From: a virus
Lineage: Duplodnaviria > Caudoviricetes
DNA length: 64,000 nt
Virus record (IMG/VR): IMGVR_UViG_3300037847_002819
Coordinates: 1 to 64,000 of that record
Reading direction: 5' to 3' (one strand)
Shown here: in pieces, positions 8,709 to 61,424 of the stretch
Position numbering within the stretch: the stretch's first letter is position 1
Layout: each line of letters begins with the position of its first letter
Position numbers and translations under genes: made by a program
The notes under the pieces: generated by a model
What the model was told of the DNA's origin: nothing
The model's input: the letters and a program-made list of their open reading frames with translations, nothing else
The model's database searches: none

Positions 8709-11234
8709 TCATTTAGGTGGAAGTGGCAATTTTTTATACTTATCTTCGTAAATATTCCATAGTCCAGCATCAGTGTCTTTATCTGCTGGCTTCTGTTTAT
8801 ACCCTGTCCAAGCCAGCCACATTTCCTTTCCATCCACTTCTATTACTCTAAAGTGCAGTTTAGTTTCAAACTTATTACCTCTCAAGAAATATTCGTGATA
8901 GCCTTCTTTCTGAACACCGAGTCCTATTTCTCCAGAATCTATAATTTTCTTCTTGGAAATGTTAGTTGCTATTTGGGCAGGGTATTTATTCGCCTTTCCA
9001 AACAATCTGAATATATCATCGTCTTTTTCTAAGTCTATTAACCAATTAAGTGTTTCATCTTCTAACTTAATTACTAAGTTTAAGTTTTCATCATCCCTTA
9101 GATATAATTTGAAATTACCCTCTTGAAGTTTTTTTGGAGTTTTATATTTTTTAATTTCCTCTTCATCTTGCATAATCTTATCGGGGTCTGCAATTAATTT
9201 CTTTTCTTTCTTATCAAAAGAAATACCATCTCTTTCATCCATCCAATTAGGTAGTCTATTCATTTTACTTTCTAGAATATCTTCATATATTTTAGAATGA
9301 TTTTTTACTAAGAAATCATGTAATTCTTTAGGAGTTTTTGCACCCCTTTCCTTTAGATACTGAAAGGCCGCAACAGTTAATCTAGACTGTTTTGTTTTCA
9401 TTATTGCTTCTGCTTGACTTTTCCATTCATCTAAATTTGCTAAAGCATTTTTAGACATTAAGTTACTTTCATCGAACCCATAAATAGTAAATCCATCCAT
9501 GTCACCTTTAATAATAACATTAGTTTCACCGTGAATATAATCAGTAACACTTACTCCCTTTTCTAATGCTTTTACATCATAATTCAAAGATTTCTTTGTA
9601 TCTTTAGATAACAACTCAAGTGTGACTAACTTATCAGGATATTCCACTTCTGGAACTTCTATTACTTTAGCAGAATAAATTGAATAAGTGTCTCCTTTCT
9701 TTTTTACCTCATCAACTTTTACACGAACAATATCTCCAATATCAACAGATATTTTAGTATTCAATGCTTTTCCTACATTCATATATTTAAGACCATTAAT
9801 TTCTTGTCCTTCATCAGTCGGCCCAGCCCCTAATGTATATGAATACAGTTTAGATTTAGTTTTCTTTTTATCTAACACAATCAAATCTAAATCAACAAAC
9901 TTCTTCCATTTAATCCATTTAGGATTTTTCTTAGTCCCTATGTAATATGTGGAAGTTGAATCTTTAATGACTACACCTTCGGCAGTAGGCATATCCATTA
10001 TTTCTTTTGAATACTGTTCAACTTCTTTAATCGAATCCGCTAATCGAGTATCTTTCTTAGAAGGGAAGTTTAGATATTCACTCGAATGAACAGAATAATT
10101 ATTGAACATTGTGTTCAATCTATCACTCAAAGGTTCATCTGCAATATTTTTGTCATTGTGTCGCATAATGTCAAACATATGCGCTTTTAGTTTAGCATCA
10201 GGATATTTACCCTTAAACACATGAGCAATAGTATCTGCTCTATGTAGTGCATCCTTTCCATCAAATAATATTAATTCACCATCTAGAATACAATCCCCGA
10301 AGTGTTTCTTCTTCATTTCTTCAACGATTTCTTTACACTTATCAGTAATATCTTTTTCATTATAGGAATAAACTTTAATCTTGTTGTCTATTTTATGAAC
10401 CTGTATTCTCATACCGTCATATTTTTCTTGAACAATGTATTCACCGCTAAATCCTTTTAACTCTTCCATGTCTTCAATGTCAAATATTCTATACATAGGT
10501 TTGTTAGGAGTAATAAAATCTGTCTTACCCTTTTCTGTTTCTGATTTTTCAATCATTTTTTTAGGTGTATCAGTTTCCATGTCAATATCTTCTAACTCTT
10601 CCCAATCTTCTTCATTGTGTTTAGAAAAGAATAATAGTTCTAACATAGCCATAGCAGACTTAACTTTCTTTTCCACCTTCTTTGAGTCTTTTCCATCCCC
10701 ATAATGCTCAATAATATAGAGGGGAATATCATCCACTTCTAGGTCAAGTCCCATAAGACCATCCGTAATGGTGTCAGGTTTCATGTCTTTAACGCTGTAA
10801 ATGGATGGATTAAGTGCTTTATTGTCATTTCTCATAGCATAATGCAAGAATTTAACCATTGTTTCCGGTGATTCTAATAACGCTTCAAGAACATTATCTT
10901 TGAAGTGTTTGGCAAAAGGGTCAGAAACCTCATCAGAAGCATATCGAAGTTTTTTCACTGCTTCGTATATCTTTTCAGCAATAGTAGTAGTTACATCGGA
11001 AGCATCTTCATTATTCAAATCCTTATCATCAATGTAGCGTTTCAATTCTTCTCCAAACTTCCCCGAATCATCATATTCCTCTTTGATGTATTCAATAGCA
11101 CTTCTCCATTTTGAACCATACTCTTTCGGGTCGGTTCTTGCAGAAAGATAGGCAACCCTAACTCTTTCAAACAATTGAAGTATTTGATTAGAAGCGTTAC
11201 CCTTCTTCTCAAATAGAAGGCCGGATTTAGGCAT
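8709..11234 (-). CDS. ATP-dependent DNA ligase-like multidomain protein in the head module, with a degenerate LigD phosphoesterase-like C-terminal domain
   Basis: Motif I EKYDGMR, III LDGEL, IIIa FDIM, IV EGVVIK, V WIKWK, followed by an OB fold. Confidence 0.85.
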   Translation of the reverse strand: MPKSGLLFEKKGNASNQILQLFERVRVAYLSARTDPKEYGSKWRSAIEYIKEEYDDSGKFGEELKRYIDDKDLNNEDASDVTTTIAEKIYEAVKKLRYASDEVSDPFAKHFKDNVLEALLESPETMVKFLHYAMRNDNKALNPSIYSVKDMKPDTITDGLMGLDLEVDDIPLYIIEHYGDGKDSKKVEKKVKSAMAMLELLFFSKHNEEDWEELEDIDMETDTPKKMIEKSETEKGKTDFITPNKPMYRIFDIEDMEELKGFSGEYIVQEKYDGMRIQVHKIDNKIKVYSYNEKDITDKCKEIVEEMKKKHFGDCILDGELILFDGKDALHRADTIAHVFKGKYPDAKLKAHMFDIMRHNDKNIADEPLSDRLNTMFNNYSVHSSEYLNFPSKKDTRLADSIKEVEQYSKEIMDMPTAEGVVIKDSTSTYYIGTKKNPKWIKWKKFVDLDLIVLDKKKTKSKLYSYTLGAGPTDEGQEINGLKYMNVGKALNTKISVDIGDIVRVKVDEVKKKGDTYSIYSAKVIEVPEVEYPDKLVTLELLSKDTKKSLNYDVKALEKGVSVTDYIHGETNVIIKGDMDGFTIYGFDESNLMSKNALANLDEWKSQAEAIMKTKQSRLTVAAFQYLKERGAKTPKELHDFLVKNHSKIYEDILESKMNRLPNWMDERDGISFDKKEKKLIADPDKIMQDEEEIKKYKTPKKLQEGNFKLYLRDDENLNLVIKLEDETLNWLIDLEKDDDIFRLFGKANKYPAQIATNISKKKIIDSGEIGLGVQKEGYHEYFLRGNKFETKLHFRVIEVDGKEMWLAWTGYKQKPADKDTDAGLWNIYEDKYKKLPLPPK

Positions 11235-47825: not shown

Positions 47826-48026
47826 ATGATTAAGTTAACAATTTTGAACGAAACAGGACACACAGAATTAGTTATGGCTTCCGAAGAAGTCATTGAGCAG
47901 ATTGATACACACCCTACACATTGGGTTTTCATCAATGGTGAAATGATGGCTAGAGAAGAAATAGCAGGTATTAATTGGGACACTGTTGAGTCAGTTGATT
48001 TAACGCCAGCAATCGTTGGCGGTTGA
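47826..48026 (+). CDS. Ubiquitin-like beta-grasp protein (ThiS/MoaD/SAMP type)
   Basis: 66 aa, VFINGE motif, ends VDLTPAIVGG (C-terminal di-Gly). Confidence 0.85.
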   Translation: MIKLTILNETGHTELVMASEEVIEQIDTHPTHWVFINGEMMAREEIAGINWDTVESVDLTPAIVGG

Positions 48027-48057
48027 TTTTATTAACCCGACTATATTTGCGACATTT

Positions 48058-48099
48058 GGGGGGAGAATGGGGCTTAGTGCCTTGTTCTCTCCCCTTTTT
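48058..48099 (+). terminator. Hairpin plus T-tract after Ubl
   Basis: GGGGGGAGAATGGGGC...GCCTTGTTCTCTCCCC-TTTTT. Confidence 0.7.
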
Positions 48100-48104
48100 G
48101 CAGT

Positions 48105-48485
48105 GTGGTTAATATGAATTTGAAACATTTTATGTCTCCCGATGCTCTTAAAATTTTATTTGAACTGAATGGTTGGAATTTGACAAAACCATTCATCCGT
48201 GATGAAGTAGCGGTTTTTACACCGGACTTCTATCCCGAAGGTTATGTTATTGGTCGTGGTAAATACGGCCAAATATACGCTTCGGGTGAAACAAAAATTC
48301 TATTCAAGGATAAGGAATATTCTTCTGTAAGTATTTTATTAGAAGAATATCCTTTCGCAGTTAATAACTTTGATGAGTGGGAATTCATCATTGAGAAAGA
48401 GTGGGTAATTAGTAAAAAAGGTGAGTGGCTTTCATCCTTTTCAACTCTATTTGAATTACCTAAAGCCAGCAAATATAGGTGTTAA
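48105..48485 (+). CDS. Hypothetical protein
   Basis: 126-aa ORF overlapping the RNR start region. Confidence 0.65.
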   Translation: MVNMNLKHFMSPDALKILFELNGWNLTKPFIRDEVAVFTPDFYPEGYVIGRGKYGQIYASGETKILFKDKEYSSVSILLEEYPFAVNNFDEWEFIIEKEWVISKKGEWLSSFSTLFELPKASKYRC

Positions 48486-48487
48486 AG

Positions 48488-50350
48488 ATGTCAAATACAG
48501 CAATAGAAACATTGTCTGATATTACAGTGCATATGAAATATGCAAGGTATTTACCAGCAAAGAAAAGAAGAGAAACTTGGAATGAAATAGTTGAAAGAAA
48601 CAGAAATATGCATATTAAAAAATATCCAGAATTAACAGAAGAAATAGGTGAAATATATGAAAAATTCGTCAAAACAAAGAAAATCCTCCCTTCTATGCGG
48701 TCTATGCAATTTGGGGGCAAACCTATCGAAATTAGTCCAAATAGGGTTTATAATTGCGCTTATATGCCTATTGATTCCCTTTTATCTTTTAGCGAGGCTA
48801 TGTTCCTACTTCTCGGTGGAACGGGGGTTGGATATTCAGTCCAACGCCATCATATTGAGCAATTACCGGAAATCATTCAACCTAATCCCGAAAGAAAACG
48901 CAGGTATCTTATTAGTGATTCTATTGAAGGATGGGCTGATTCAATTAAAATCCTTTTGGAGTGTTATACCGGAAATAGGAGTAGTAGTCCTATTTTTGAT
49001 TATTCTGATATTAGACCAAAAGGAAGCCTATTAAGGACTAGTGGCGGAAAAGCGCCGGGTTTTCAGCCATTAAGGGAATGTTTAGTTAAAATAGAAGGAA
49101 TGCTTCAAAATAAAAATAATGGCTCTAAATTAGATTCAATTGAAGCACATGATATTATGTGTTATTTAGCAGATGCAGTATTAGCAGGTGGTATTAGGAG
49201 AGCCGCTATGATTAGTTTATTTAGTGCAGATGATTCTAAAATGATTAGTTGTAAGTCTGGTAATTGGTGGGAAAATAATCCACAAAGAGGTCGTGCAAAT
49301 AATTCAGCAGTTATTCTTAGACATAGAGTGACTAAAGACTTCTTTATGGGTCTATGGGAAAGAATACAACATAGTGGTAGTGGTGAACCGGCAGTTTATT
49401 TCAGTAATGATAAAGATTGGGGAACAAACCCATGTTGTGAAATTGCTTTGCGACCATATCAGTTTTGTAATCTAACAGAAGTAAATGCTTCTGATATTAC
49501 AGACCAAGCAGATTTAGAAGCAAGAGTAAAAGCGGCTTCATTCATAGGAACGCTTCAAGCAGGTTATACTGATTTCCATTACCTTAGAGAAATATGGAAA
49601 AAGAACACTGAAAAAGATTCTTTGCTCGGTGTATCTATGACAGGTATTGCTTCTAATGTTGTTGAACCTTTAGATTTAGAAATGGCTTCGTTTGCCGCTA
49701 AACAGGAAAACAAGAGGATTTCTAAAATCATTGGTGTAAAACCTGCGGCTAGAATTACTTGTGTAAAACCTGCTGGAACTACTTCTCTCGTTTTAGGAAC
49801 AAGTAGTGGTATTCATGCTTGGCACGACAATTATTACATTCGAAGAATTAGAGTAGGTAAGAATGAAGCAATCTATTCTTATCTATCATCTAATCATCCG
49901 GAATTGGTTGAAGATGAATACTTCAATCCGGAGGAACAAGCAGTTATTTCTATTCCTCAAAAGTCTCCCGATGATGCTATCACAAGACATGAATCAGTAT
50001 TTGATTTATTGGAGCGTGTTAAGAATTTTAGTATTCGTTGGGTTAGAACAGGCCATATTGATGGTTTGAATAGCCATAATGTGTCTGCAACAATATCTGT
50101 TAAAGATGATGAATGGGATGATGTTGGCGAATGGTTATGGATGAATAGACACTACTACAATGGTTTGTCTGTATTACCTTATGATGGAGGAACATACAAA
50201 CAAGCACCATTTGAAACAATAGATAAGGAAACATATGATGAAATGATGTTAGCCTTAACTAAGATTGATTTAACTAAAATTACCGAAGAACAAGACGATA
50301 CTAACTTAACAGGCGAATTGGCTTGTGCTGGTGGGGCTTGTGAAATCTAG
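48488..50350 (+). CDS. nrdJ: Class II (B12-dependent) ribonucleotide reductase
   Basis: YNC, GTGVG, RRAAMI, TNPCCEI, FCNL, VKPAGT and C-terminal CAGGAC; no R2 subunit nearby. Confidence 0.93.
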   Translation: MSNTAIETLSDITVHMKYARYLPAKKRRETWNEIVERNRNMHIKKYPELTEEIGEIYEKFVKTKKILPSMRSMQFGGKPIEISPNRVYNCAYMPIDSLLSFSEAMFLLLGGTGVGYSVQRHHIEQLPEIIQPNPERKRRYLISDSIEGWADSIKILLECYTGNRSSSPIFDYSDIRPKGSLLRTSGGKAPGFQPLRECLVKIEGMLQNKNNGSKLDSIEAHDIMCYLADAVLAGGIRRAAMISLFSADDSKMISCKSGNWWENNPQRGRANNSAVILRHRVTKDFFMGLWERIQHSGSGEPAVYFSNDKDWGTNPCCEIALRPYQFCNLTEVNASDITDQADLEARVKAASFIGTLQAGYTDFHYLREIWKKNTEKDSLLGVSMTGIASNVVEPLDLEMASFAAKQENKRISKIIGVKPAARITCVKPAGTTSLVLGTSSGIHAWHDNYYIRRIRVGKNEAIYSYLSSNHPELVEDEYFNPEEQAVISIPQKSPDDAITRHESVFDLLERVKNFSIRWVRTGHIDGLNSHNVSATISVKDDEWDDVGEWLWMNRHYYNGLSVLPYDGGTYKQAPFETIDKETYDEMMLALTKIDLTKITEEQDDTNLTGELACAGGACEI

Positions 50351-50358
50351 GTGATTAG

Positions 50359-50703
50359 ATGAAAACTCGCAGGATTCGGCCTATCCGTCATTTGAGTTTT
50401 GATGACTTTGTAAGAGTCATTATTTCTTATGATGATGTATGGTCTAATTCTGCGAAAAAGAAGATTAAATTAGCACTTGACGCTTGTGCAGGTTTAGAAG
50501 ATGAAACAGACAAAAAGTATAGACTTTGGCAGACTGTTAAAATAGTATTATGGGAAATACCCGAAGCGGTGGAAAGAGGCTTTGCTGACTATGCTAGAAA
50601 AGCATTTGCAGAAAGACATGAAGCCCTTCAATACCATAATAAAAACCAAACTGATTTCTATAATAATTATATTTACGGAATAATGAAAGGGTGGTATAAA
50701 TGA
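50359..50703 (+). CDS. Hypothetical protein
   Basis: AGGTG RBS. Confidence 0.7.
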   Translation: MKTRRIRPIRHLSFDDFVRVIISYDDVWSNSAKKKIKLALDACAGLEDETDKKYRLWQTVKIVLWEIPEAVERGFADYARKAFAERHEALQYHNKNQTDFYNNYIYGIMKGWYK

Positions 50704-50867
50704 AAGAAAAAGACCCCGAATATACAAAGAGTCATTGGTCGTATAAAAAAAGAGTCGCTACTAAATGTAGGATTTGTGGAGGCCAACTGCTTTTACCGGA
50801 AGATATGAAAAAAGAAATTCACAAAGAATGTGTTAATAATATAAATGATAATAGTTATATGATGTGA
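50700..50867 (+). CDS. Small Zn-finger protein (55 aa)
   Basis: KCRICGG...HKEC; ATGA overlap. Confidence 0.6.
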   Translation: MKEKDPEYTKSHWSYKKRVATKCRICGGQLLLPEDMKKEIHKECVNNINDNSYMM

Positions 50868-50871
50868 TAAA

Positions 50872-52119
50872 ATGAATGAATTAAAAATAAGAATACGAAG
50901 ACCTGACGATTCCCAAGAATTTTGGAGAACAACGATTAAAAGTAATTTGATTAAATCGGCATACGATGTTCAAATTCAATCTAATAGAAATGCGAAAGAC
51001 CCTGTTCATTCTGCTATTACGACTTTCTTTTCTAGTAACTTAAAATCTTCAAGAGGATATTATAATAGACACTATAAATATATGAGATTACCTTCACAGG
51101 ACTTCAACGAAGTTATTGATATTGGAGGTTGTTTGATAGCATTAGGAAGAAGGGGTAATAGATATACTCTAAATGGTAAAACGGAAAGTTTGCATACTAT
51201 TGCTTCTGCTTTGGCTAGAGTTACTTTCAAGTCCTGTTTTGAAAAAGATGTGGCTAAACTAATGAAAGGACTGTATGCTACTCTAAGTATTCCCGAAGAT
51301 GTAAAGTATTGTTTAGAGAATAGAGTGCCATTTCATTTCTTCGATAATTTTCAGAAAACCGAAGTTAGATTGAATTGTCAACAGATTAGCGATAGCGAAG
51401 TTGCAATTGAAGTTAGTGATGGAGTTTGGGGAACAATGACTAATAAAGAATTAGAATCCTTCTGTGCTTTTTATCTTCATGGTAAAAAGAGAAGTAAAAA
51501 ATGGATGTTTTGTTCTCCTGAGATTCTTTATGAAAGAACAGTAGGAGTTAAACCAAAAATTTCAGATAGAAAACTAATGATTGAATTTCTAAAGCAAAAT
51601 AGACAACAGGATATTGTCGAAGATAGGGCTAAGTTATTGGTTAAAGAAACGGCAGAAAAATATCCCGACAGAATCAAAGTCGTTTATGATGATGATAAAG
51701 AAGTATCAGCCATGTATGTTCGTGGAAAAGGTTGGGATTGGAAACTTACTAACACTAAATTCAAATCAGATATTCAGATGGTTTCGACATTTGTTTACTC
51801 AACACCCGATACTGATGAATACTTCGCACAAAGAATTGAGAAGTGGGAAGAAGAATGTTTGGGAATTAATAATGATGCTGTTAATAATGGTTCTGAAGAA
51901 GAAATTAAATTACCGCCAAAACCAACTAATGAACCTCAATGGAAAGGGCCGATTTGTATTGATAATATGTCTGGTGGTTCTTCTTTAGGCGACCAATTTG
52001 TAGCAAGAGCATTAGCACTTCTTAATGATACTTTAACAGTAAAAATAGTTAACACGATTAAAAGGTATATATGTAATGATGAAAATAGTATAAGAGTTGA
52101 TTTTGATGAAATGCAGTGA
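50872..52119 (+). CDS. Hypothetical protein (415 aa); C-terminal GPICID motif, candidate E2-like domain
   Basis: Long ORF; WKGPICIDN...LGDQFVARALALLND. The function is speculative. Confidence 0.6.
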   Translation: MNELKIRIRRPDDSQEFWRTTIKSNLIKSAYDVQIQSNRNAKDPVHSAITTFFSSNLKSSRGYYNRHYKYMRLPSQDFNEVIDIGGCLIALGRRGNRYTLNGKTESLHTIASALARVTFKSCFEKDVAKLMKGLYATLSIPEDVKYCLENRVPFHFFDNFQKTEVRLNCQQISDSEVAIEVSDGVWGTMTNKELESFCAFYLHGKKRSKKWMFCSPEILYERTVGVKPKISDRKLMIEFLKQNRQQDIVEDRAKLLVKETAEKYPDRIKVVYDDDKEVSAMYVRGKGWDWKLTNTKFKSDIQMVSTFVYSTPDTDEYFAQRIEKWEEECLGINNDAVNNGSEEEIKLPPKPTNEPQWKGPICIDNMSGGSSLGDQFVARALALLNDTLTVKIVNTIKRYICNDENSIRVDFDEMQ

Positions 52120-53005
52120 ATGTGGTTGTTTAGTCTTTAATTATAATGAAAGACTAGGAGAGACAGAATGTAGTGATTGCGGATTAGTAATCGTAACAGA
52201 TTTGTTTGAAGAAAGTGTCAGAATGATAGATGATGGAAAGGTTGTCCATTCTGCTGAAAGGGGAGAATTAGGTTCTGTAATAACAGGAAAGGGTTCGTTT
52301 AAGTTTAATAGAAGAGGTAACAATAATGTTATTCCTAGACATATTACTGCTGGTTTGCAGACTTGTAATATGATTCTATCTTCTATCCAAATAAACCATC
52401 CTCTTAAAGATAGAGTTAAGGAATGTTACTTAGAAGCACAAAAGAAAGGTTTGTTTGGAAAAATCAAACTAGAGGCTAGATGCACTGCTACTGTCTTCTA
52501 TGTTCTGAAAGAAAATAGAACACCTGTTCCTATGAAAAAATTATGTTCTGAATATTCGTGTTCAACTAAAGTAGTGAATAGATTAGTGCGGAAAATGATT
52601 CACCACTTCAAAAGTAAGAATATACTTTATGGAGCAGACCCCTCTTTTATGTTAAAGCAGACCTGTTCTAGAATAACAGATGATGTAATGTTTTATTCTA
52701 ATGCTATGGATTTGATGTTAAAGTTAGAACCTATCATAGAAGACCATTGTTATCATAAATCAAAGGCATATTACGCAAGTGTATGTTGGGTGGCGACAAA
52801 TATGTTTAGATATTATGGTGTAACTAAGAATGATATTTCTGAAAGCACAGATATTTCCTTATCAGCAATAGGAAAGACAAGTAAAAAATTAATCCAAATG
52901 TTAGGATTCGATAAAATGTCCGAAATTAAAGGGCGAGATATAATAGAATATGGTGATATAAATGACAATAAGAATGAGAGATGTAATACCGACAAGCGAG
53001 CATAG
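52106..53005 (+). CDS. tfb: Transcription initiation factor IIB (TFB) homolog
   Basis: N-terminal Zn ribbon CSECG...GETECSDCGLVI followed by two cyclin-like repeats. Confidence 0.88.
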   Translation: MKCSECGCLVFNYNERLGETECSDCGLVIVTDLFEESVRMIDDGKVVHSAERGELGSVITGKGSFKFNRRGNNNVIPRHITAGLQTCNMILSSIQINHPLKDRVKECYLEAQKKGLFGKIKLEARCTATVFYVLKENRTPVPMKKLCSEYSCSTKVVNRLVRKMIHHFKSKNILYGADPSFMLKQTCSRITDDVMFYSNAMDLMLKLEPIIEDHCYHKSKAYYASVCWVATNMFRYYGVTKNDISESTDISLSAIGKTSKKLIQMLGFDKMSEIKGRDIIEYGDINDNKNERCNTDKRA

Positions 53006-53137
53006 ATATTGGAAAAAGGATTTTCTAAATACTTATGTGACTACCAATAATAAAAGAAAAGAGTATTGTAAATATCAAACTCTTTTGGGTCGTAAAGACT
53101 CGTTTAAGATATATGAAGAAGCAAGGAGGAAGTTTAA

Positions 53138-53773
53138 GTGAATATATTTGCACTATCAAGAAATCCGCAAGAAGCGGCACTAGAAATGTTAGACAAGCAC
53201 ATAGTTAAAATGCCAACGGAAACTTGCCAAATGTTACATACAAATGTTTTGTATTTTGACTACATTGAACATTATGGTGAAGAACCTACTTTAGCGCAAG
53301 TAAAGCAGTTTCATAGAGATATTAATTCAAAACTAATGAAACCTGCTATGTTGAATCATCCTTCAACAATATGGGCTAGACAGAACCCTCATAATACTCG
53401 ATGGTTATATGAGCATGGTAAAGCATTATGTGAAGAATATACCTATCGCTACGGCAAGGTTCATGGTTCGCAATCTAGAATATTAGATATAGCATATACG
53501 ATTGATGAAGATTCTAATTGGTCGTTTGCTACACCTGTAACTATTGCTATGGATGATAAGTATAGATTAGTCAAAGATAACAGGATTCCCGATTGGGACT
53601 TCGTAATTAATAGTTACAGACATTATTACCTTCAAGGTAAATGGAGGTTTGCTGAATGGAGGGCAAATAGAATGCCAACATGGTGGCCTAAAGACCACTA
53701 CAAAAACAAATACAATGAAGGAATAGACAATTATAATAAAAGATGGAATGCAAAATTGGAGAGATTAGAATGA
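53138..53773 (+). CDS. Pyrimidine-dimer DNA glycosylase / endonuclease V-like family protein
   Basis: MNIF..., DKHIVKMPTETCQML, NHPSTIWAR, EYTYRYGKVH. Confidence 0.8.
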   Translation: MNIFALSRNPQEAALEMLDKHIVKMPTETCQMLHTNVLYFDYIEHYGEEPTLAQVKQFHRDINSKLMKPAMLNHPSTIWARQNPHNTRWLYEHGKALCEEYTYRYGKVHGSQSRILDIAYTIDEDSNWSFATPVTIAMDDKYRLVKDNRIPDWDFVINSYRHYYLQGKWRFAEWRANRMPTWWPKDHYKNKYNEGIDNYNKRWNAKLERLE

Positions 53774-54330
53774 AGAGAAAAATATTGATTATAGGAGTGG
53801 GTGGTATTGGGAGTTTCCTAGTGCCACTATTAGATAAAGTAGGAATGTATGATATTTCAGTGGCAGACCCCGATAAGGTCGAAACTAAGAATTTAACATA
53901 TCAAAACTTTACAGAAGAAGATGTTAATTTTCACAAAGTAAGTAGGATGAATGCTCGATATAATAGTGTTAATAATGCGAGCAAATTTCCTATCCTAACT
54001 TCTAAACAAATGCAAGGATATGATTTAGTCGTATGTTGTGTTGATAATTTATCAGTTAGAAGAACCTTGTATAATTCAAATATTAAATGGTTGGATTTAA
54101 GAGCGCAAGGTCGTAATGGGGCTTTCGTTACTTCTGATGCAGACCCTAAAATGTATGATTCTTTATTAGCAGGGCCAGATGGTTCATTTTCTTGTCAAGG
54201 AAATTCATGGGATGGTAGCAATAGTGGCGTTCATTTCATGCAAGTTGTTATTGCAGGTATTGGCGCACAATGGATTCAAAGATGGTTTAACAAAGAAGAT
54301 GTAAAATCCTTTATGGTAATTAATGTATAG
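53770..54330 (+). CDS. ThiF/MoeB/E1-like adenylating enzyme
   Basis: GVGGIGS, DPDKVETKNLTYQ, K, CVDNLSVRR; Cys in FSCQG at the E1 thioester position. Confidence 0.9.
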   Translation: MKRKILIIGVGGIGSFLVPLLDKVGMYDISVADPDKVETKNLTYQNFTEEDVNFHKVSRMNARYNSVNNASKFPILTSKQMQGYDLVVCCVDNLSVRRTLYNSNIKWLDLRAQGRNGAFVTSDADPKMYDSLLAGPDGSFSCQGNSWDGSNSGVHFMQVVIAGIGAQWIQRWFNKEDVKSFMVINV

Positions 54331-54341
54331 GAGGAATAAAA

Positions 54342-55421
54342 ATGAAAGGAGAGAAATGGACAACAGGACAAATAATGAGAGGCGCATATTTGCGCTTAGT
54401 GGAAAAAAGAACTTGGCCGCAAATTAAAACACAGATGGAAAAAGAAGGCTTTCCTGTTAGAAGTGTTGATAATTATGGTGCTACAATTAGAAGATGTATC
54501 AATCAATATAACATATCTTTTGATGATGAACCTAAAACAAGTGATTGGAGAAGTGACCCTGCCACAAGAAAACAATGCAGGTATATTGCTTCTATGACAC
54601 TACCCGATGGTAAAAATAGCGAAATCACTAAATTAACAAATGAGTTAATAGAAGCCTCAAAGCGTGGTGAATTTGATAAAGAGGCCGCTAATGAGCAGAT
54701 TAAACTATTAGAAACTACTCTATTAGAGGCTCAATCTTTCAATGTTAAAGCGAAGAATAATACTAACTTGTTATACAGTGGTGTTGCTACCCGTTGGACT
54801 CCAAAAGAAGATGCTCTTTTGGTTAATTGGATGAATGAGCATAAAGACGGAGAACAGGGTTTTCCTCCTAATCTGAATAGAACCCCTAGAGCGTGTCGTG
54901 AAAGATGGTTGAGAAGCCTAAAACATCTAACTCCTTCTATTAAGACTGTTAGAAAGAATGGCACATATACTCTTCAAGATGAAACACCTTTGGAGCAAAC
55001 ATTGGTGTATTATGAAGAACCTAAGAATACAAGTAAAAGACCTAAAAATTGGACTCGCTTGAATAATGAAAGTATTGAATATCCTAATACTAACAAACCG
55101 TGGACATATGATGAATCATTAGAAGCATTGGTAATGTGGCATTCTATGTCAATTGATGATGCGAGAGAAAAGTTTGGTCGCCCATATTGGGTGATAGCAA
55201 AACATATCGAGAAGCATTTTGATTTTACATATGCTGAAAGTAAATCGTTGCTTATGGAGGCCGCAGGTATCAAGAATCAATTAGAGGCTAATAAGTTAGC
55301 AGAAAAGAAACCTTCGCTTAGGAAGCGTTGGAGAGACAAGAGAAACGCTAAAAAGCAAAGGCGACTAGAGAAGAAACTAGCAAAGACCCAAAGAAAATTG
55401 GAGAAGATGGAGTTGGAATAA
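54342..55421 (+). CDS. Myb/SANT-like repeat DNA-binding protein
   Basis: KWTTGQ, RWTPKEDALL...NRTPRACRERW, PWTYDES. Confidence 0.7.
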   Translation: MKGEKWTTGQIMRGAYLRLVEKRTWPQIKTQMEKEGFPVRSVDNYGATIRRCINQYNISFDDEPKTSDWRSDPATRKQCRYIASMTLPDGKNSEITKLTNELIEASKRGEFDKEAANEQIKLLETTLLEAQSFNVKAKNNTNLLYSGVATRWTPKEDALLVNWMNEHKDGEQGFPPNLNRTPRACRERWLRSLKHLTPSIKTVRKNGTYTLQDETPLEQTLVYYEEPKNTSKRPKNWTRLNNESIEYPNTNKPWTYDESLEALVMWHSMSIDDAREKFGRPYWVIAKHIEKHFDFTYAESKSLLMEAAGIKNQLEANKLAEKKPSLRKRWRDKRNAKKQRRLEKKLAKTQRKLEKMELE

Positions 55422-55910
55422 ATGAATGGTAAATTTAATACAGTAATGAAAAGAATAGATTTAGAAGCAAATAGATTAAAGGCTGAATTATACATAGATG
55501 CTTATTATGAACAAGGTATGGAAATAAAAGATTTATTTGAACATATTTGGTTTGCTTCAACAGAAATACTGAATGGTTTAGAGGTTCAAGTTGTTATTGA
55601 TTCTAATGACGCTATTCATATTTCGTCAGGTTCAGCAGGTTATGTTGATTTTCAAATTGACCCTGTTGGAATGAAATTACCGATTAAGTGCTGGATTCAC
55701 ACACACCCATTCGGTAGTGCTTATTTCAGTGGAACTGATATTAGAACAGTTAGTATTTGGCAACCATTAATGAAGACTGCTTATGTGTTAGGTGGAGATG
55801 GGCATTATGGTTCTTGGAATCAAAAAGAACCTTATCTATTAGATATATACCGTAACCATGAATATGAAAGAACACAAGTTTGGGTTAGAAAAGGAGATGA
55901 AGAAGAATGA
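55422..55910 (+). CDS. JAB/MPN+ (JAMM) metalloprotease, deubiquitinase-like
   Basis: Upstream Glu (GLEVQ) and WIHTHPFGSAYFSGTD (HxH-x7-S-x2-D). Confidence 0.88.
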   Translation: MNGKFNTVMKRIDLEANRLKAELYIDAYYEQGMEIKDLFEHIWFASTEILNGLEVQVVIDSNDAIHISSGSAGYVDFQIDPVGMKLPIKCWIHTHPFGSAYFSGTDIRTVSIWQPLMKTAYVLGGDGHYGSWNQKEPYLLDIYRNHEYERTQVWVRKGDEEE

Positions 55911-56221
55911 GATTTAGAAGAATTAAAAGTGGAAATAATGCAATTAGACAATACAAAGGAAAGCCGTTCAATAAAGAAACGCAGTATGGCGAATCGGATG
56001 CTAAGGCAGTCGCTAGAATAACTCTAAGTGAAAGAAAGCGAAGACATATGTCAAAACACCCTAATGATGAAAATACTACTAATCCAAACAAGGGAGTTTA
56101 TTGGGGCAAGAAAGGTAAGTCTCACAAAGACTTAATGGAATTCCATAAGAATCATATTTGGACATATATTGATGCTGATATGAATAAGGGATGGGTTAAC
56201 ATCAGTGGTGAAGAAGAATGA
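55907..56221 (+). CDS. Basic hypothetical protein
   Basis: ATGA overlap. Confidence 0.65.
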   Translation: MRFRRIKSGNNAIRQYKGKPFNKETQYGESDAKAVARITLSERKRRHMSKHPNDENTTNPNKGVYWGKKGKSHKDLMEFHKNHIWTYIDADMNKGWVNISGEEE

Positions 56222-56490
56222 TACAATGGATGCTTAGGAAGACAATATGGTTTATGGGTCTTGTTTATGTTACATTAGACAAGTTTGTAAAATATGAAGA
56301 TAGTGATAAAATCTTAGGTATTAAGATTGATGATGATTTTCAAAGAATGACAAGAAGAGAATTATGTAATTATGTCGAATTTAAGTTTGGCTGGGATGAA
56401 GGTTCTTTTTGGGGATTGCAGTCCACACAGAAAATTAGAGTATGTTGCCAAGTGGCAAGAAATAATAGATTCAAAGGTGAAGAAGAATGA
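56218..56490 (+). CDS. Hypothetical protein
   Basis: ATGA overlap. Confidence 0.65.
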   Translation: MIQWMLRKTIWFMGLVYVTLDKFVKYEDSDKILGIKIDDDFQRMTRRELCNYVEFKFGWDEGSFWGLQSTQKIRVCCQVARNNRFKGEEE

Positions 56491-56662
56491 ATACAAAAGT
56501 AAAGGCAGAAGTGTTAGATGAAATAATAAGTTATTTGGATATTATGAGAGAGAACAGTCAACATCATCAAGATGAATATGACGCTATTCAGTTTTTGCTA
56601 AATAACAGAACAAAAACAATTTGGCAGTTGCCATTTGAAATAACCCCTTTAGGTGATGCGGA

Positions 56663-56878
56663 ATGAAAGCAGTAGGAGAATATGTAATTGTAAAAATAGA
56701 AGAAACAAAAAGCGAAAGTGGTATTTTAACTAAAGCCGCTAATCAAGGAAGAGTGATAGATTGTAAGGTTGATACTAGCCTTAGAGATAAGATTGTTCTT
56801 TTTAACGATAAGAGAGACTATACAAGACAAAACGATATTTTGTTTATTCCCTATGAGTTTATCTTGGCGGTGGTATAA
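56663..56878 (+). CDS. groES: Co-chaperonin GroES (Cpn10), short
   Basis: MKAVGEYVIVK, mobile-loop SESGIL, GRVI, ends ILAVV; upstream of GroEL. Confidence 0.8.
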   Translation: MKAVGEYVIVKIEETKSESGILTKAANQGRVIDCKVDTSLRDKIVLFNDKRDYTRQNDILFIPYEFILAVV

Positions 56879-57027
56879 TGTGCGATAATTGCGGTCAAAA
56901 TGCAACTAGATACAAAGCGTTTGGTGCTACCGGCTGGAGATATTTTTGTAGTGAAAGATGCTACGCTAGATTTAATGCTATGCCTATTCAAGAAGAAGGA
57001 TATTATGGATTGGAGAGATTAGAATGA
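56878..57027 (+). CDS. Small TRASH/YHS-like Zn-finger protein (49 aa)
   Basis: MCDNCG...YFCSERC; overlaps both neighbours. Confidence 0.6.
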   Translation: MCDNCGQNATRYKAFGATGWRYFCSERCYARFNAMPIQEEGYYGLERLE

Positions 57028-58541
57028 TAATTAATGGAGAAGAAGTAAAAGAGAAATTAAAAGAAGGGATTGATTTAGTAGCAAATACTGTTAAACCAAC
57101 ATTAGGGCCACAAGCAAAAACAGTTATTTTGCAAGGTAATCCTCCTGTTATAATTAATGACGGAGTTACAATTACTAAGTATGTATCAAGTAATGACCCT
57201 TATGTTCAAATGGGAGTCCAAATGGTGCAAAACTTAGCAAGTAAAGCACAGGATAATTCGGGCGATGGAACAACAACGGCCTGTATTATTGCTCAAGCAC
57301 TTGTTGAGAATATTCAGAAACAAGAGAATTATAACATTAGAGTGCTTCAAAATGAATTACAAGAGGCTCAAGAAATTATTGCGTCTTATCTGATAGATAA
57401 CGCAATACCTATTCTTGATGATGATATTCTGAATGTTGCTACTATTGCGGCTAATAATGATGATGAGTTAGGTTCTCTAATTCAAGAGGCTATCAATGCG
57501 GTAGGTCGTGACGGTATCATTACAGTTGAAGAATCCAAAACTCATAAGACACAAATAGTTACAAGAAGTGGTTTAGAGTTTGATGAAGGTTATCTAAGTC
57601 ATATGATGTGTAATGGAGATGATGGTAAAGTAACATTTGATAATCCCGTTATCTTTTCATCTAATCTAAACATTAGACACTTTCAAGAAATACTTCCGTT
57701 GCTAGAATTATGTGCTAAGAATAAGAAACCATTGGTAATCATTTGTCGTGGTATGGAAGGCACTGCACTAAGTAATGTAATTATGAATGTTCTTCAAAAG
57801 ACAATTGAAGTAGCAGTGGTAAAAGCACCAAACTTCGGTGATGCTCAATTAGATGAGTTAGACGATATTGTAACTGTTTGTGGCGGTAAAATGTTTAACG
57901 AAGAAAGTAAAGATGAGCCGTCTATGGCTACTTTGGATGAGTTAGGAACTGCTGATAAAATAATCATATCTAAAGATAATACTGTTATTATTGGTGGAGG
58001 TAATGCTGGTTCTGATTCAAAAGAACAGAAGGTTTCCTCTCTAAAAGAATTGTATGAATCAACTGATGATAGGTATGACAAGATGCGCTACAAAAAGCGA
58101 ATAGCAAGATTGAATGGCGGTATTGCTACTATTCAAGTTGGTGCATCTTCACAAATGGAAATGCGTGAAACTAAAGAAAGATTAGATGATGCGCTTAATG
58201 CTACTAAAGCAGCACTTGACGAAGGTATTGTTATTGGTGGAGGTAAGGCACTTCTTAATGCTAGAGATTCTTTAGATGTAGCAAAGAAGGGTCATCATGT
58301 AGTGTATGAATCGTTAATTGCCCCGTTTATGACTTTATGTGATAACAGTAGTGTTGATGATTTGCATTATCTTCCTTTAGAAACAAATGAATCAATAAAT
58401 GCTATGACGGGTGAAGTAGGAAATATGTTTGAATTGGGTATTGTTGACCCTGTAAAGGTAACTAGAAACAGTTTCCTTGCGGCTATGTCAATAGCAAAAC
58501 TTTTCCTAACTACCGAAGTAGCAGTTTTGAGAGAGGAATGA
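57024..58541 (+). CDS. groEL: Group I chaperonin GroEL
   Basis: VKPTLGP, INDGVTI, GDGTTT, GIITVEE, FDEGYLS, VKAPNFGD, GIVDPVKV. Confidence 0.95.
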   Translation: MIINGEEVKEKLKEGIDLVANTVKPTLGPQAKTVILQGNPPVIINDGVTITKYVSSNDPYVQMGVQMVQNLASKAQDNSGDGTTTACIIAQALVENIQKQENYNIRVLQNELQEAQEIIASYLIDNAIPILDDDILNVATIAANNDDELGSLIQEAINAVGRDGIITVEESKTHKTQIVTRSGLEFDEGYLSHMMCNGDDGKVTFDNPVIFSSNLNIRHFQEILPLLELCAKNKKPLVIICRGMEGTALSNVIMNVLQKTIEVAVVKAPNFGDAQLDELDDIVTVCGGKMFNEESKDEPSMATLDELGTADKIIISKDNTVIIGGGNAGSDSKEQKVSSLKELYESTDDRYDKMRYKKRIARLNGGIATIQVGASSQMEMRETKERLDDALNATKAALDEGIVIGGGKALLNARDSLDVAKKGHHVVYESLIAPFMTLCDNSSVDDLHYLPLETNESINAMTGEVGNMFELGIVDPVKVTRNSFLAAMSIAKLFLTTEVAVLREE

Positions 58542-59778: not shown

Positions 59779-59998
59779 ATGGATTTACTTAGCAAATGCT
59801 ATGTGGACTTATGCTGAAAAGCATGAAGGTAAAATTAGCCGCCTTCTAAAAGAATTGGTTAAAATAGTAAATAAAAATATGGAGATGATTATAAATGACA
59901 ATGAACAGACTAGCGAGACTATTAGAAAGCACAGACCAGAAAACACCAACACAACAAGTTTCGATGATAACGGAACAAGTGGGAACATTCAAGAATAA
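59765..59998 (+). CDS. Hypothetical protein
   Basis: Short ORF; its 3' part overlaps the ligase start. Confidence 0.5.
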   Translation: MKKNEWIYLANAMWTYAEKHEGKISRLLKELVKIVNKNMEMIINDNEQTSETIRKHRPENTNTTSFDDNGTSGNIQE

Positions 59999-61424
59999 AC
60001 CAGCACTATTCGCAATTTTGGCTAGAGAATATCCTAATAATAACATAGGATTATCAAGAGCGAAAAAGTGGATGGCTAAGATATACGATGTTTTTGAAGA
60101 TGAAATAGAAATTGAATACAAAGCACATGATGATTTAGGAGATGCTATCTATTACTTGGATATATCAGCAGAAACAAAAGAACAAACTCCGCTATCAAGT
60201 GTATTGAGTTTGCTTTCTATGGATTGTGATGGTATCAAAACTGAATCTTTCAAAACTATACAACACGCTATTATTAATATGAGTGCATTAGAATGTCGTT
60301 GGTTTATCCGCTATTGGCTAAAGACACCACGCAACGGAATCAATAGTGGTATTGTTAAGAAAGTAATAGCAAAACACTACAACAAGAAGGTATCAGAAGT
60401 TAAGAAGCATTGTAACTTTAACACTATTTCTGATGTGGTAAGATATTATGAATCTAATTCTGAACCACCTACTAATCTAGAACATGGGTCTTTTGTAGCA
60501 CCTATGTTAGCAAAAGAAATACCTATGAACAAATGGCCTGTTAATAGAATCGTTGATTACAAATATGATGGTAATAGGTATCAGATTCACAAAGAAGGAG
60601 ACAGTGTAATTATCTTTAACCGCAAAGGAAATATTGTTACTCCGCAGTTTCAAGATGTAGTCGAACAAGTTAGAAAATACAATGTTCACACTTGTATTCT
60701 TGATGGGGAAATATATCCTATTAATGAAGATGGTTCACCTGCTGAACATAAACTAATGGGAACAAGAGTCCATTCTAAGAATCACGAAGAAGCAAGAGAA
60801 AGGGTCAAAGTAAAATGGGTTATTTTCGATTGCCTAAAGTTTGGTAAGGACACCATTATGGACTTGCCGTATTCTGATAGATTAATAGCGATTAAAACAT
60901 TACCCGACCAAGCACATAGAATGACAGGAACAGATACCTTAGCATTTTACAATAGAGCAATCAATGACGGCTTTGAAGGCATTATAGTTAAGGATGCCTC
61001 TTTGCCTTATGAATCCGGTAAAAGAAGTGTTGGTTGGGCTAAATACAAACCCCCTAGAATTAATCTAGATGTAGTTGTTCTTAGTGCAAAGTATGGTGAA
61101 GGAAGAAGGGCAAATGTATTTGCTTCATTCGCTATGGGAGTTAGAAGTGAACATGGTGATTATGTTCCTTTAGGTTCTATTGGTAGTGGTTTCAGTGATT
61201 CGCAGTTAGTTAGATTGACAAATGATTTAAGAAGAAATATTGATAGTCATTCTAATGGCACATATCACTTCATCCCAAGAATTGTTCTTGAAGTAACTGC
61301 TGATTTAATTTCACAAGATGCTCAAGGTAATTGGGGATTAAGGTTTCCAAGACTAGTTAGAATTAGAGATGATAAGTTTGTAGCAGATATTAATACATTT
61401 GATGATTTAATGGAGATGGTGTGA
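59895..61424 (+). CDS. lig: ATP-dependent DNA ligase (replicative type)
   Basis: N-terminal DBD, PMLA, KYDGNR, LDGEI, FDCL, EGIIVK, WAKYK, LRFPR. Confidence 0.95.
   Translation: MTMNRLARLLESTDQKTPTQQVSMITEQVGTFKNKPALFAILAREYPNNNIGLSRAKKWMAKIYDVFEDEIEIEYKAHDDLGDAIYYLDISAETKEQTPLSSVLSLLSMDCDGIKTESFKTIQHAIINMSALECRWFIRYWLKTPRNGINSGIVKKVIAKHYNKKVSEVKKHCNFNTISDVVRYYESNSEPPTNLEHGSFVAPMLAKEIPMNKWPVNRIVDYKYDGNRYQIHKEGDSVIIFNRKGNIVTPQFQDVVEQVRKYNVHTCILDGEIYPINEDGSPAEHKLMGTRVHSKNHEEARERVKVKWVIFDCLKFGKDTIMDLPYSDRLIAIKTLPDQAHRMTGTDTLAFYNRAINDGFEGIIVKDASLPYESGKRSVGWAKYKPPRINLDVVVLSAKYGEGRRANVFASFAMGVRSEHGDYVPLGSIGSGFSDSQLVRLTNDLRRNIDSHSNGTYHFIPRIVLEVTADLISQDAQGNWGLRFPRLVRIRDDKFVADINTFDDLMEMV

Follow-up and report, generated by a model that had tools for sequence, protein, structure and literature searches.

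We analyzed a window of 64,000 nucleotides at the start of a 95,889-base virus record (IMGVR_UViG_3300037847_002819) rated as 100% complete, in which genes for a ubiquitin-like protein (Ubl), an E1-type activating enzyme and a JAB/JAMM protease had been noticed from the letters alone (here termed the original prediction). The Ubl with its C-terminal Gly-Gly, the ThiF/E1 protein with a Cys but no CxxC pairs and the JAMM protease were confirmed as open reading frames (ORFs), all three on the plus strand, and a fourth gene was found to accompany them. Based on sequence comparisons, we consider it reasonably likely that these genes encode a self-contained four-protein module for Ubl activation and conjugation. 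The genes concerned are the following:

47826..48026, plus strand: Ubl, a beta-grasp protein of 66 amino acids with the C-terminus Val-Gly-Gly.
50700..50867, plus strand: a Cys-rich (zinc-ribbon-like) protein of 55 amino acids, directly upstream of the 50872 gene.
50872..52119, plus strand: the fourth partner, 415 amino acids (the 50872 protein), with a candidate E2-like (UBC-fold) C-terminal domain at residues ~245-415.
53770..54330, plus strand: E1, a minimal ThiF-type adenylating enzyme of 187 amino acids, in an ORF open from 53743.
55422..55910, plus strand: a JAB/JAMM metalloprotease of 162 amino acids.

The window contains the tailed-virus genes for a capsid protein, a portal, a prohead protease and a terminase, together with a GroEL-type chaperonin, a class II ribonucleotide reductase and two ATP-dependent ligase-like genes. 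Based on these gene traits and on passages of Philosof et al., the virus is therefore classified as a magrovirus-like tailed virus, and Marine Group II archaea (Poseidoniales) are its presumed hosts.

Eighty viral loci were picked by the window-type Ubl alone, some contigs occurring twice. All 73 loci with at least 9 kb of sequence downstream of the Ubl carry a homologue of the 50872 protein, an E1 and a JAB, which bears out the co-occurrence in related genomes that the original prediction had named as a check. The same genes were found in two of the three loci with 7-9 kb downstream, the third of which ends 8.3 kb past the Ubl, before the expected JAB. The four short loci contained the 50872 homologue alone (three loci) or all genes (one locus). 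The E1 is located 2.3-7.0 kb after the Ubl in the magrovirus-type loci, and the genes are retained in the genome without being fixed neighbours. Conservation in every adequately covered relative excludes chance ORFs, and the 50872 protein is the fourth constant partner of the Ubl, E1 and JAB.

Two of the loci retrieved with the E1 as query have an E1 of 36% identity; they represent a second lineage and encode a 79-amino-acid Ubl ending in Val-Gly-Gly, a 151-amino-acid JAB and the E1, in that order and with overlapping genes. A search with the phage-type Ubl returned 14 loci, approximately 11 of them distinct, and Ubl, JAB and E1 are located in this order on one strand within ~2 kb in all 14. 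The frame of this phage lineage consists of a zinc-ribbon protein, a protein of 700-754 amino acids (c0), the Ubl, the JAB, the E1 and, further along, a sigma-70 factor and a family A polymerase. Since the latter two are encoded, the phage lineage probably infects bacterial hosts.

Fusions were observed among the best 150 Ubl representatives of the family search described below. Two Ubl units are joined to ThiF in P0130 and one Ubl to ThiF in P0178, and P0259 is a fusion of Ubl and Prok-JAB (JAB part 2.7e-7, 30.9 bits); Pfam confirmed the ThiF part of P0130 and the JAB part of P0259. In P0129, P0136, P0186, P0143 and P0157, the Ubl is joined to another domain (X), and a Cys-motif domain was recognized in P0129, P0186, P0143 and P0157. 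The co-occurrence, the phage-lineage operon and the Ubl-E1 and Ubl-JAB fusions support the proposal that the virus encodes its own Ubl, E1 and JAMM protease as one functional set.

The predicted structure of the window Ubl (AlphaFold2, mean predicted local distance difference test score 90.5) displays a beta-grasp topology. Its fold matches are ubiquitin-like and MoaD-like proteins, with MoaD, CysO, TtuB and Urm1 among the best. At the sequence level, the window Ubl showed no Pfam match at E<=0.1, including to the ThiS, MoaD and ubiquitin families. A profile search against 1.84 billion representatives identified 208 proteins at E<=1e-3. In an alignment of 40 diverse members, His12 and Gly65-Gly66 are invariant and Gly11 and Trp33 nearly so, and a Pfam scan of 40 family members yielded no covering family, the sole match being to ThiS at E 0.097. 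Thus, no Pfam model covers the Ubl family. The window Ubl and the phage-lineage Ubl are homologous over their full length (26% identity, E 2e-6). Neither of the two matched any of 50,697 deposited phage records, and neither P0122, a tandem Ubl, nor the fusion P0186 retrieved relatives when viral contigs were scanned.

The C-terminal ends of the family bear on the role of the protease. Of the best 150 of the 208 representatives, 149 contain the domain, 14 of them in two or three tandem units. The end of the domain was reached in 142 Ubl domains and reads Gly-Gly in 138, Ala-Gly in 3 and Gly-Cys in 1. It is followed by a stop in 38 domains, by 1-5 extra residues in 53, by 6-30 in 12, by more than 30 residues (fusions) in 23 and by another unit (tandem repeats) in 16. 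Even in the close relatives L002 and L008, the Ubl terminates with Gly-Gly-Gln-Glu. The earlier argument that the JAB is not needed for maturation, and hence serves deconjugation, therefore fails for the family. Because extra residues, further units or fused domains follow the Gly-Gly in the majority of members, a protease cutting at this site is needed at the family level, and the JAB, as the obvious candidate, probably also matures the Ubl. In the window genome, the Ubl needs no trimming, and the JAB may mainly serve reversal there.

The window JAB matched Prok-JAB (PF14464) at E 2e-4 with 21.6 bits, which is under the 25-bit cut-off. The Glu ... H-x-H-P-x6-S-x2-D motif is kept in all of the 16 aligned viral, phage and fusion JABs, and the Glu lies in Leu-Glu-Val-Gln-Val-Val, ~37 residues upstream of the motif, in the six magrovirus-type sequences (6/6). 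The protein also aligns to the active-site stretch of AMSH-LP, weakly (E 0.24), and in a pairwise comparison with the phage-lineage JAB it is barely similar outside the motif. Judging from the motif and the family, the JAB is a probable Ubl-processing and deconjugating peptidase.

The E1 is likely to start at ATG 53770, because nearly all of its homologues (739 clusters) are 185-187 amino acids long and because GGAGAG is located 7-12 bases upstream of this ATG. It matched the Pfam family ThiF (PF00899) at E 3e-17 with 63 bits (cut-off 28.1); ThiF and MoeB are its best named model matches, and in the PADLOC E1-E2 models it matches the E1 part only. Among solved chains, it is related to the ThiF-type protein 9egc (E 1e-9), UBA5, Cap2 (E ~4e-5), MccB, Uba4 and ThiF. 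All 17 viral and phage E1s share the GxGGIGS loop, Lys57, Val-Asp-Asn 92-94, two Asp residues, Trp-x-Asp-x-Arg and Ser-Cys-Gln. The alignment of viral, phage and fusion E1s places the single Cys, within the invariant Ser-Cys-Gln, ~50 residues past the Asp-Asn motif. Enzymes of the MoeB, ThiF and UbaA type carry two CxxC zinc-binding pairs; no such pair was present in the 187-amino-acid sequence. A search of the 50,697 deposited phage records with the phage-type E1 gave one match, which is unannotated. ThiF-like genes of 25-32% identity were also observed in crAss-like Bacteroides phages and in two Moraxella phages, where they are annotated as 'thiamine biosynthesis protein' or not at all.

Homologues of the 50872 protein form 480 clusters, all of them unnamed and without a Pfam domain, and the protein itself gave no match in searches of Pfam, PADLOC and NCBIfam. 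Its Cys362 is invariant in an Ile-Cys-Ile ... Asp ... Arg..Ala-Leu.Asn-Asp motif. In the phage lineage, c0 takes the place directly before the Ubl, and 38 sequences of the 50872 and c0 families share 13 invariant positions, including Ile-Cys-Ile 361-363, Asp374, Arg379, Ala382, Asn385 and Asp386. An alignable Cys motif is also present in the X domains of the fusions, as it is in host proteins whose genes precede that of the Ubl or E1. When residues 245-410 were compared with known structures, ~30 of 50 rows were chains of the UBC superfamily, which lends modest support to a predicted E2-like (UBC) fold of the C-terminal domain. The original prediction had named no E2; considering the co-occurrence of the 50872 protein everywhere, its invariant Cys and its predicted UBC-like domain, the set probably does include one.

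Other searches with the 50872 protein were negative. The whole model gave no significant match by Foldseek, and residues 240-415 gave no usable match in the ESM Atlas. A UQ_con search found no match in the virus genome, but the control genomes were blank too. No His-Pro-Asn motif was seen before the Cys when the family sequences were read by eye, and the 50872 protein had no significant BLASTP match among the Ubl-X fusions. The 50872/c0 profile matched weak guanylate-kinase-domain rows in the PDB (E 0.0026-1.1), which we take as a chance resemblance around Gly..Cys-Ile-x-Asp. A complex prediction with two E1, the Ubl and residues 240-415 scored 0.00 in a run without controls and counts neither way. 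The Cys-rich protein of 55 amino acids adjoins the 50872 homologue in L001, L002, L003, L004 and L008, and a zinc-ribbon-like small protein (cluster c6) precedes c0 in 12 of the 14 phage loci. It is a possible accessory of the module, its membership being uncertain.

Homologous genes were identified in the presumed hosts. One genome per prokaryote species was scanned with the E1 alignment, and 80 loci were returned. The best of these (55% identity) is a magrovirus-like contig with all four genes in a bin titled Altibacter. The next 15 are from bins titled mostly Poseidoniales, Poseidoniaceae, Euryarchaeota and Methanobacteriota, with one Salipiger and one Micrarchaeota. In 12 of these 15 host-type loci, a JAB-type ORF (mostly 177-187 amino acids) with a His-Thr-His-Pro ... 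Ser..Asp motif much like the viral one directly follows an E1 of 209-238 amino acids, and an 80-amino-acid protein without a Pfam domain usually comes next. The remaining three loci are the phage-like L113, where c0 is followed by E1, the truncated L116, and L120 with its masked sequence. The window JAB and the host JABs are 46-47% identical over ~79 residues (E 1e-20). According to Pfam, the host neighbours include a glycosyltransferase, a fatty-acid oxidation enzyme and a class II ribonucleotide reductase, further cellular genes were recognized by eye, and one host-type contig is 168 kb long.

A Ubl is located directly upstream in L114 and L120, the order in L114 being Cys-motif protein, Ubl, E1 and JAB. 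Whole-genome searches of five such host genomes identified the Ubl in all five, as an in-frame tandem pair in two. The host Ubl is often located away from the E1-JAB pair, with a clamp-loader-type ATPase or ribosomal protein L15e as neighbours by eye. Searched with P0186, the five host genomes matched its Ubl part only and not its X domain. A first genome scan with the phage-type Ubl alignment returned none, which is weak evidence of absence given its narrow patterns.

A FastTree phylogeny of 59 E1 domains, including 19 other ThiF proteins and rooted by midpoint only, separated a host-type clade (n=15, support 0.97) from a virus-type clade (n=25, support 0.995). The latter unites the magrovirus E1s, the phage lineage and L113, and is sister to the host-type clade with a support of 0.88. 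Thus, the phylogenetic comparison with the host that the original prediction had proposed as a check places the viral E1s in a clade of their own beside the host enzymes. A recent capture of a host E1 is rejected because of this separate clade, and judging from the tree the viral genes are old relatives of the host system.

The chemical steps of the cascade that we propose are taken from what is known of the families. A tailed, tandem or fused Ubl would be cut after Gly-Gly by the JAMM protease, a step for which the window Ubl is already mature. The E1, probably a homodimer like other minimal E1s, would adenylate the C-terminal Gly66 with ATP, by analogy with the ThiF family, and would then take up the Ubl as a thioester on the cysteine of Ser-Cys-Gln. 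The Ubl would be handed to Cys362 of the E2-like domain of the 50872 protein, which is the weakest step, and would end on lysines of viral or host target proteins, from which the JAMM protease could remove it again.

Several observations weigh against this cascade or against the strength of its support. The co-occurrence within each virus lineage is inherited synteny, so that the independent units are the lineages (about three) and the fusions, not the 87 loci. The link between the 50872 and c0 family profiles extends over 231 columns in hhalign at E 0.0017, but with a probability of just 15%, and the comparison with the Ubl-X fusions aligns the short motif alone (E 0.02-0.03). In the ThiF/E1 superfamily, an Asn-Leu-x-Arg-Gln motif contributes an Arg. 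In the viral E1s, this residue is an invariant Tyr (Asn-Leu-x-Tyr-Gln-Asn-Phe), while the fusions P0130 and P0178, which cluster with the host enzymes in the tree, have a His there; the handling of ATP may therefore differ.

Three other explanations were considered. Sulfur carriage is the main rival and seems to us rather improbable. The E1 would here adenylate the Ubl, and a host donor would turn its end into a thiocarboxylate for a thiolated nucleoside, a cofactor or another small molecule; the JAB would only mature precursors, and the 50872 protein would be a sulfur acceptor enzyme or play no part. The affinity of the E1 to ThiF and MoeB is in line with this explanation, as are MoaD, CysO, TtuB and Urm1 among the best fold matches of the Ubl. 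The Ubls SAMP, Urm1 and TtuB serve as both modifiers and sulfur carriers. Passages of Iyer et al. (2006; PMC1779556) also tie prokaryotic neighbourhoods of JAB, E1 and ThiS/MoaD genes to sulfur metabolism. However, the E1 is without a rhodanese domain, the constant partner bears a Cys and is predicted to be UBC-like, the precursors are tandem and fused, and the neighbours of the module in the virus and the phage lineage are replication and transcription genes, not genes of sulfur metabolism. PP-loop ATPase (PF01171), rhodanese (PF00581), cysteine desulfurase (PF00266), MoaE and ThiG were all absent from the 95,889-base genome, whereas the control genomes matched, and host enzymes could supply such steps. 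The lack of thiamine, molybdopterin and tRNA-thiolation genes that had been reported for the window holds for the whole genome, and a role in thiamine or molybdopterin synthesis is rejected because no partner genes are present. It is also unlikely, if less so, that conjugation proceeds without an E2, as in SAMPylation, with the E1 alone transferring the Ubl and the 50872 protein acting as the main substrate, a target-choosing adaptor or a scaffold, its invariant Cys having another role such as metal binding or structure. Both SAMP/UbaA and TtuB/TtuC operate without an E2, all of the evidence for the UBC fold is modest, and the fusion of Ubl to a Cys-motif domain in some genomes fits a substrate as well as an E2. 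On the other hand, the Cys and its motif do not vary among the forms from hosts, magroviruses, phages and fusions, as would be expected of a catalytic residue, UBC-superfamily chains make up ~30 of the 50 rows in the structure comparison, and Type I Bub regularly has its Ubl fused to the E2, as described in passages of PMC11601596.

The remaining explanation concerns the purpose of the module and is compatible with the proposed cascade. The viral proteins could be diverged copies that compete with, hijack or undo a Ubl pathway of Poseidoniales or a Ubl-based defence, for example by a JAB that strips host conjugates or a Ubl that acts as a decoy. We regard this as rather improbable, and a role in counter-defence as possible. 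Bil and CBASS (cyclic oligonucleotide-based antiphage signaling system) Cap2/Cap3 act against phages according to passages of PMC11601596. Poseidoniales possess the homologous E1-JAB operon and the Ubl (in 5/5 of the genomes tested), and the core of the viral JAB is 46-47% identical to that of the host. Counter-defence genes are usually variable, whereas the module is core in the virus group (73/73). Moreover, the viral E1s form an old clade with the phage E1s and are not nested among the host E1s, the host genes are located among housekeeping genes with no evident defence island, and the phage lineage, which shares the module, infects other hosts that are probably bacteria. Targeting to the proteasome, which the original prediction had offered as a purpose, is unlikely to be general, because the phage lineage with its sigma-70 factor and family A polymerase carries the same module.

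Returning to the four-protein cascade, we tentatively suggest, at somewhat less than even confidence, that it is old and common to Poseidoniales, magroviruses and a marine bacteriophage lineage, and that the viruses run an orthogonal copy of it as a core step of infection. The parts in this joint reading would be a Gly-His ... Trp ... Gly-Gly Ubl, often in polyubiquitin-like tandem, the 187-amino-acid E1, the Cys-bearing UBC-like protein and the JAMM protease.

Other genes of the window, several of them close to the module, are the following:

8709-11234 and 59895-61424: ATP-dependent DNA-ligase-like genes, the first encoding an 841-amino-acid protein with large unexplained flanks.
48479-50350: class II ribonucleotide reductase, directly after the Ubl gene.
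53138-53773: pyrimidine-dimer DNA glycosylase gene, overlapping the start of the E1 ORF.
54342-55421: a 359-amino-acid protein with a weak Myb-like match, between E1 and JAB.
56663-56878: a 71-amino-acid ORF, directly upstream of the GroEL-type chaperonin (57024-58541).

The class II ribonucleotide reductase recurs near the module. It is located two genes before the Ubl in the phage lineage (L006 3130-6507), where the copy has 1125 amino acids and, by eye, an apparent inserted element. In 6 of the 15 host-type loci (L114 9116-12811, for example), it is located 1-2 kb from the E1-JAB pair, as confirmed by Pfam for one of them. This recurrent neighbour may be a lead to the target of the module. 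The protein at 52097-53005, a putative TFB-like factor, gave a weak zinc-ribbon match only and no match to PDB sequences, and this label is not relied on.

The 71-amino-acid ORF is kept in relatives, stands at the GroES position and has no Pfam match; according to the 2017 magrovirus paper, a co-chaperonin is not expected. Across 55890-58541, consecutive genes (ends 55910, 56221, 56490 and 56666) terminate in Gly-Glu-Glu-Glu and overlap the following start by four bases (ATGA), the DNA reading GGTGAAGAAGA-ATG. The acidic Glu tails stem from GGTGA, a sequence like a ribosome-binding site that lies within the upstream gene, and many homologues on other contigs likewise end in Glu-Glu-Glu. The family B DNA polymerase gene is located outside the window in two pieces (G000 69406-69915 and 71024-71482), ~1.1 kb apart and with one TAA within the second match. 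L072 and L075 belong to one viral contig of 184,733 bases, in which the Ubl occurs twice ~93 kb apart, suggesting an assembled concatemer of two genome copies.

Ubl conjugation in prokaryotes has so far been described as an activity of the host, in SAMPylation, Bil, CBASS and Bub. If this tentative reading is correct, the module would be the first complete set for Ubl conjugation that viruses of prokaryotes are known to encode; its four proteins are all small. A core module in highly abundant ocean viruses, together with a compact operon in unrelated phages, would show that viruses tag proteins with a modifier of their own, in parallel to the exploitation of ubiquitin by eukaryotic viruses. 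The homologous Marine Group II system with its tandem 'poly-Ubl' genes bears on the evolution of ubiquitin-type precursors and of E1-E2 cascades. The tagging system looks like an undescribed and widespread one: in open texts, that is, without supplements or subscription papers, the literature search turned up no account of a Ubl, JAB or E2-like partner encoded by viruses or of a Poseidoniales set, and no paper naming both magrovirus and ubiquitin. The main texts of PMC5434244 and PMC11706807 do not mention ubiquitin, JAB, ThiF or MoeB, and their supplements may list such genes. No relevant paper was found for the PDB codes 9egb, 9egc and 9egd. The available passages of the Bil preprint do not mention prophage or phage-encoded systems, and those of the Bil and Bub texts treat host systems.

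Among known systems, passages of PMC11601596 describe Type I Bub as a Ubl-E2 fusion that is cut by a JAB-E1 fusion, and Bil as a set of Ubl, E2, JAB and E1. No link by sequence profile to Bub proteins was found, the DUF6527 protease (BubE) not being included in the searches. As far as those passages describe it, Type I Bub (BubAB, BubCD, BubE) resembles the viral module in its minimal homodimer-type E1 related to UBA5, in the JAMM protease that cuts a Ubl precursor, in the presence of Ubl and E2 in one polypeptide, as in our Ubl-X fusions, and in Ubls with 1-3 beta-grasp units. It differs in that the four viral parts are separate genes and the module is found in viruses and archaea; moreover, the viral E1 keeps a conserved Cys, which BubCD does not have, and the putative viral E2 has a Cys where Bub E2s have a Ser. 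Bil (BilA Ubl, BilB E2, BilC JAB, BilD E1) comprises the same four roles with a JAMM protease that both matures and reverses. However, Bil is a bacterial defence that tags phage tails, whereas the module described here is viral and core, and the window E1 is a single adenylation domain of 187 amino acids that corresponds to the E1 part alone of the PADLOC E1-E2 models.

SAMPylation (SAMP1-3, UbaA, HvJAMM1) likewise takes place in an archaeal setting and relies on a beta-grasp modifier with Gly-Gly, an E1 of the ThiF type and conjugate removal by a JAMM protease. UbaA is a protein of ~270 amino acids with zinc-binding Cys pairs, and the window E1 scores 30.6 bits against the UbaA model NF047750, the cut-off of which is 450. 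Furthermore, SAMPs belong to the ThiS and MoaD families, neither of which the window Ubl matches, and SAMPylation is without an E2. CBASS Cap2/Cap3 is similar in the sequence-related E1 domain of Cap2 and in a JAMM protease acting as antagonist or processor, but Cap2 joins E1 and E2 in one protein and, in the absence of a separate Ubl, conjugates the cyclase itself, in host defence. The phage lambda and T1 tail assembly proteins I and K, as presented in passages of Iyer et al. (2006; PMC1779556), combine a phage beta-grasp Ubl that has a C-terminal Gly with a JAB. These passages place phage Ubl-JAB pairs in tail assembly only; unlike ours, the pair is without an E1, is located in the tail module, has a Ubl with a C-terminal domain and serves in assembly. 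Finally, passages of the RaFAH paper (PMC8276007) list MoeB/ThiF among the most prevalent auxiliary genes of archaeal viruses and link them to ubiquitination, and those on the Asgard virus Nidhogg report three E1-like genes (bioRxiv 10.1101/2021.07.29.454249). Both discuss virus-encoded ThiF-type E1 homologues as a route to ubiquitin-like modification. In these passages the E1 stands alone and host Ubls are assumed, with no viral Ubl, JAMM protease or E2-like partner. Thus, a ThiF gene alone is already known from archaeal viruses, and what is new is the Ubl family together with a minimal E1, a JAB and a putative E2 as a virus-encoded set that is mirrored in the hosts.

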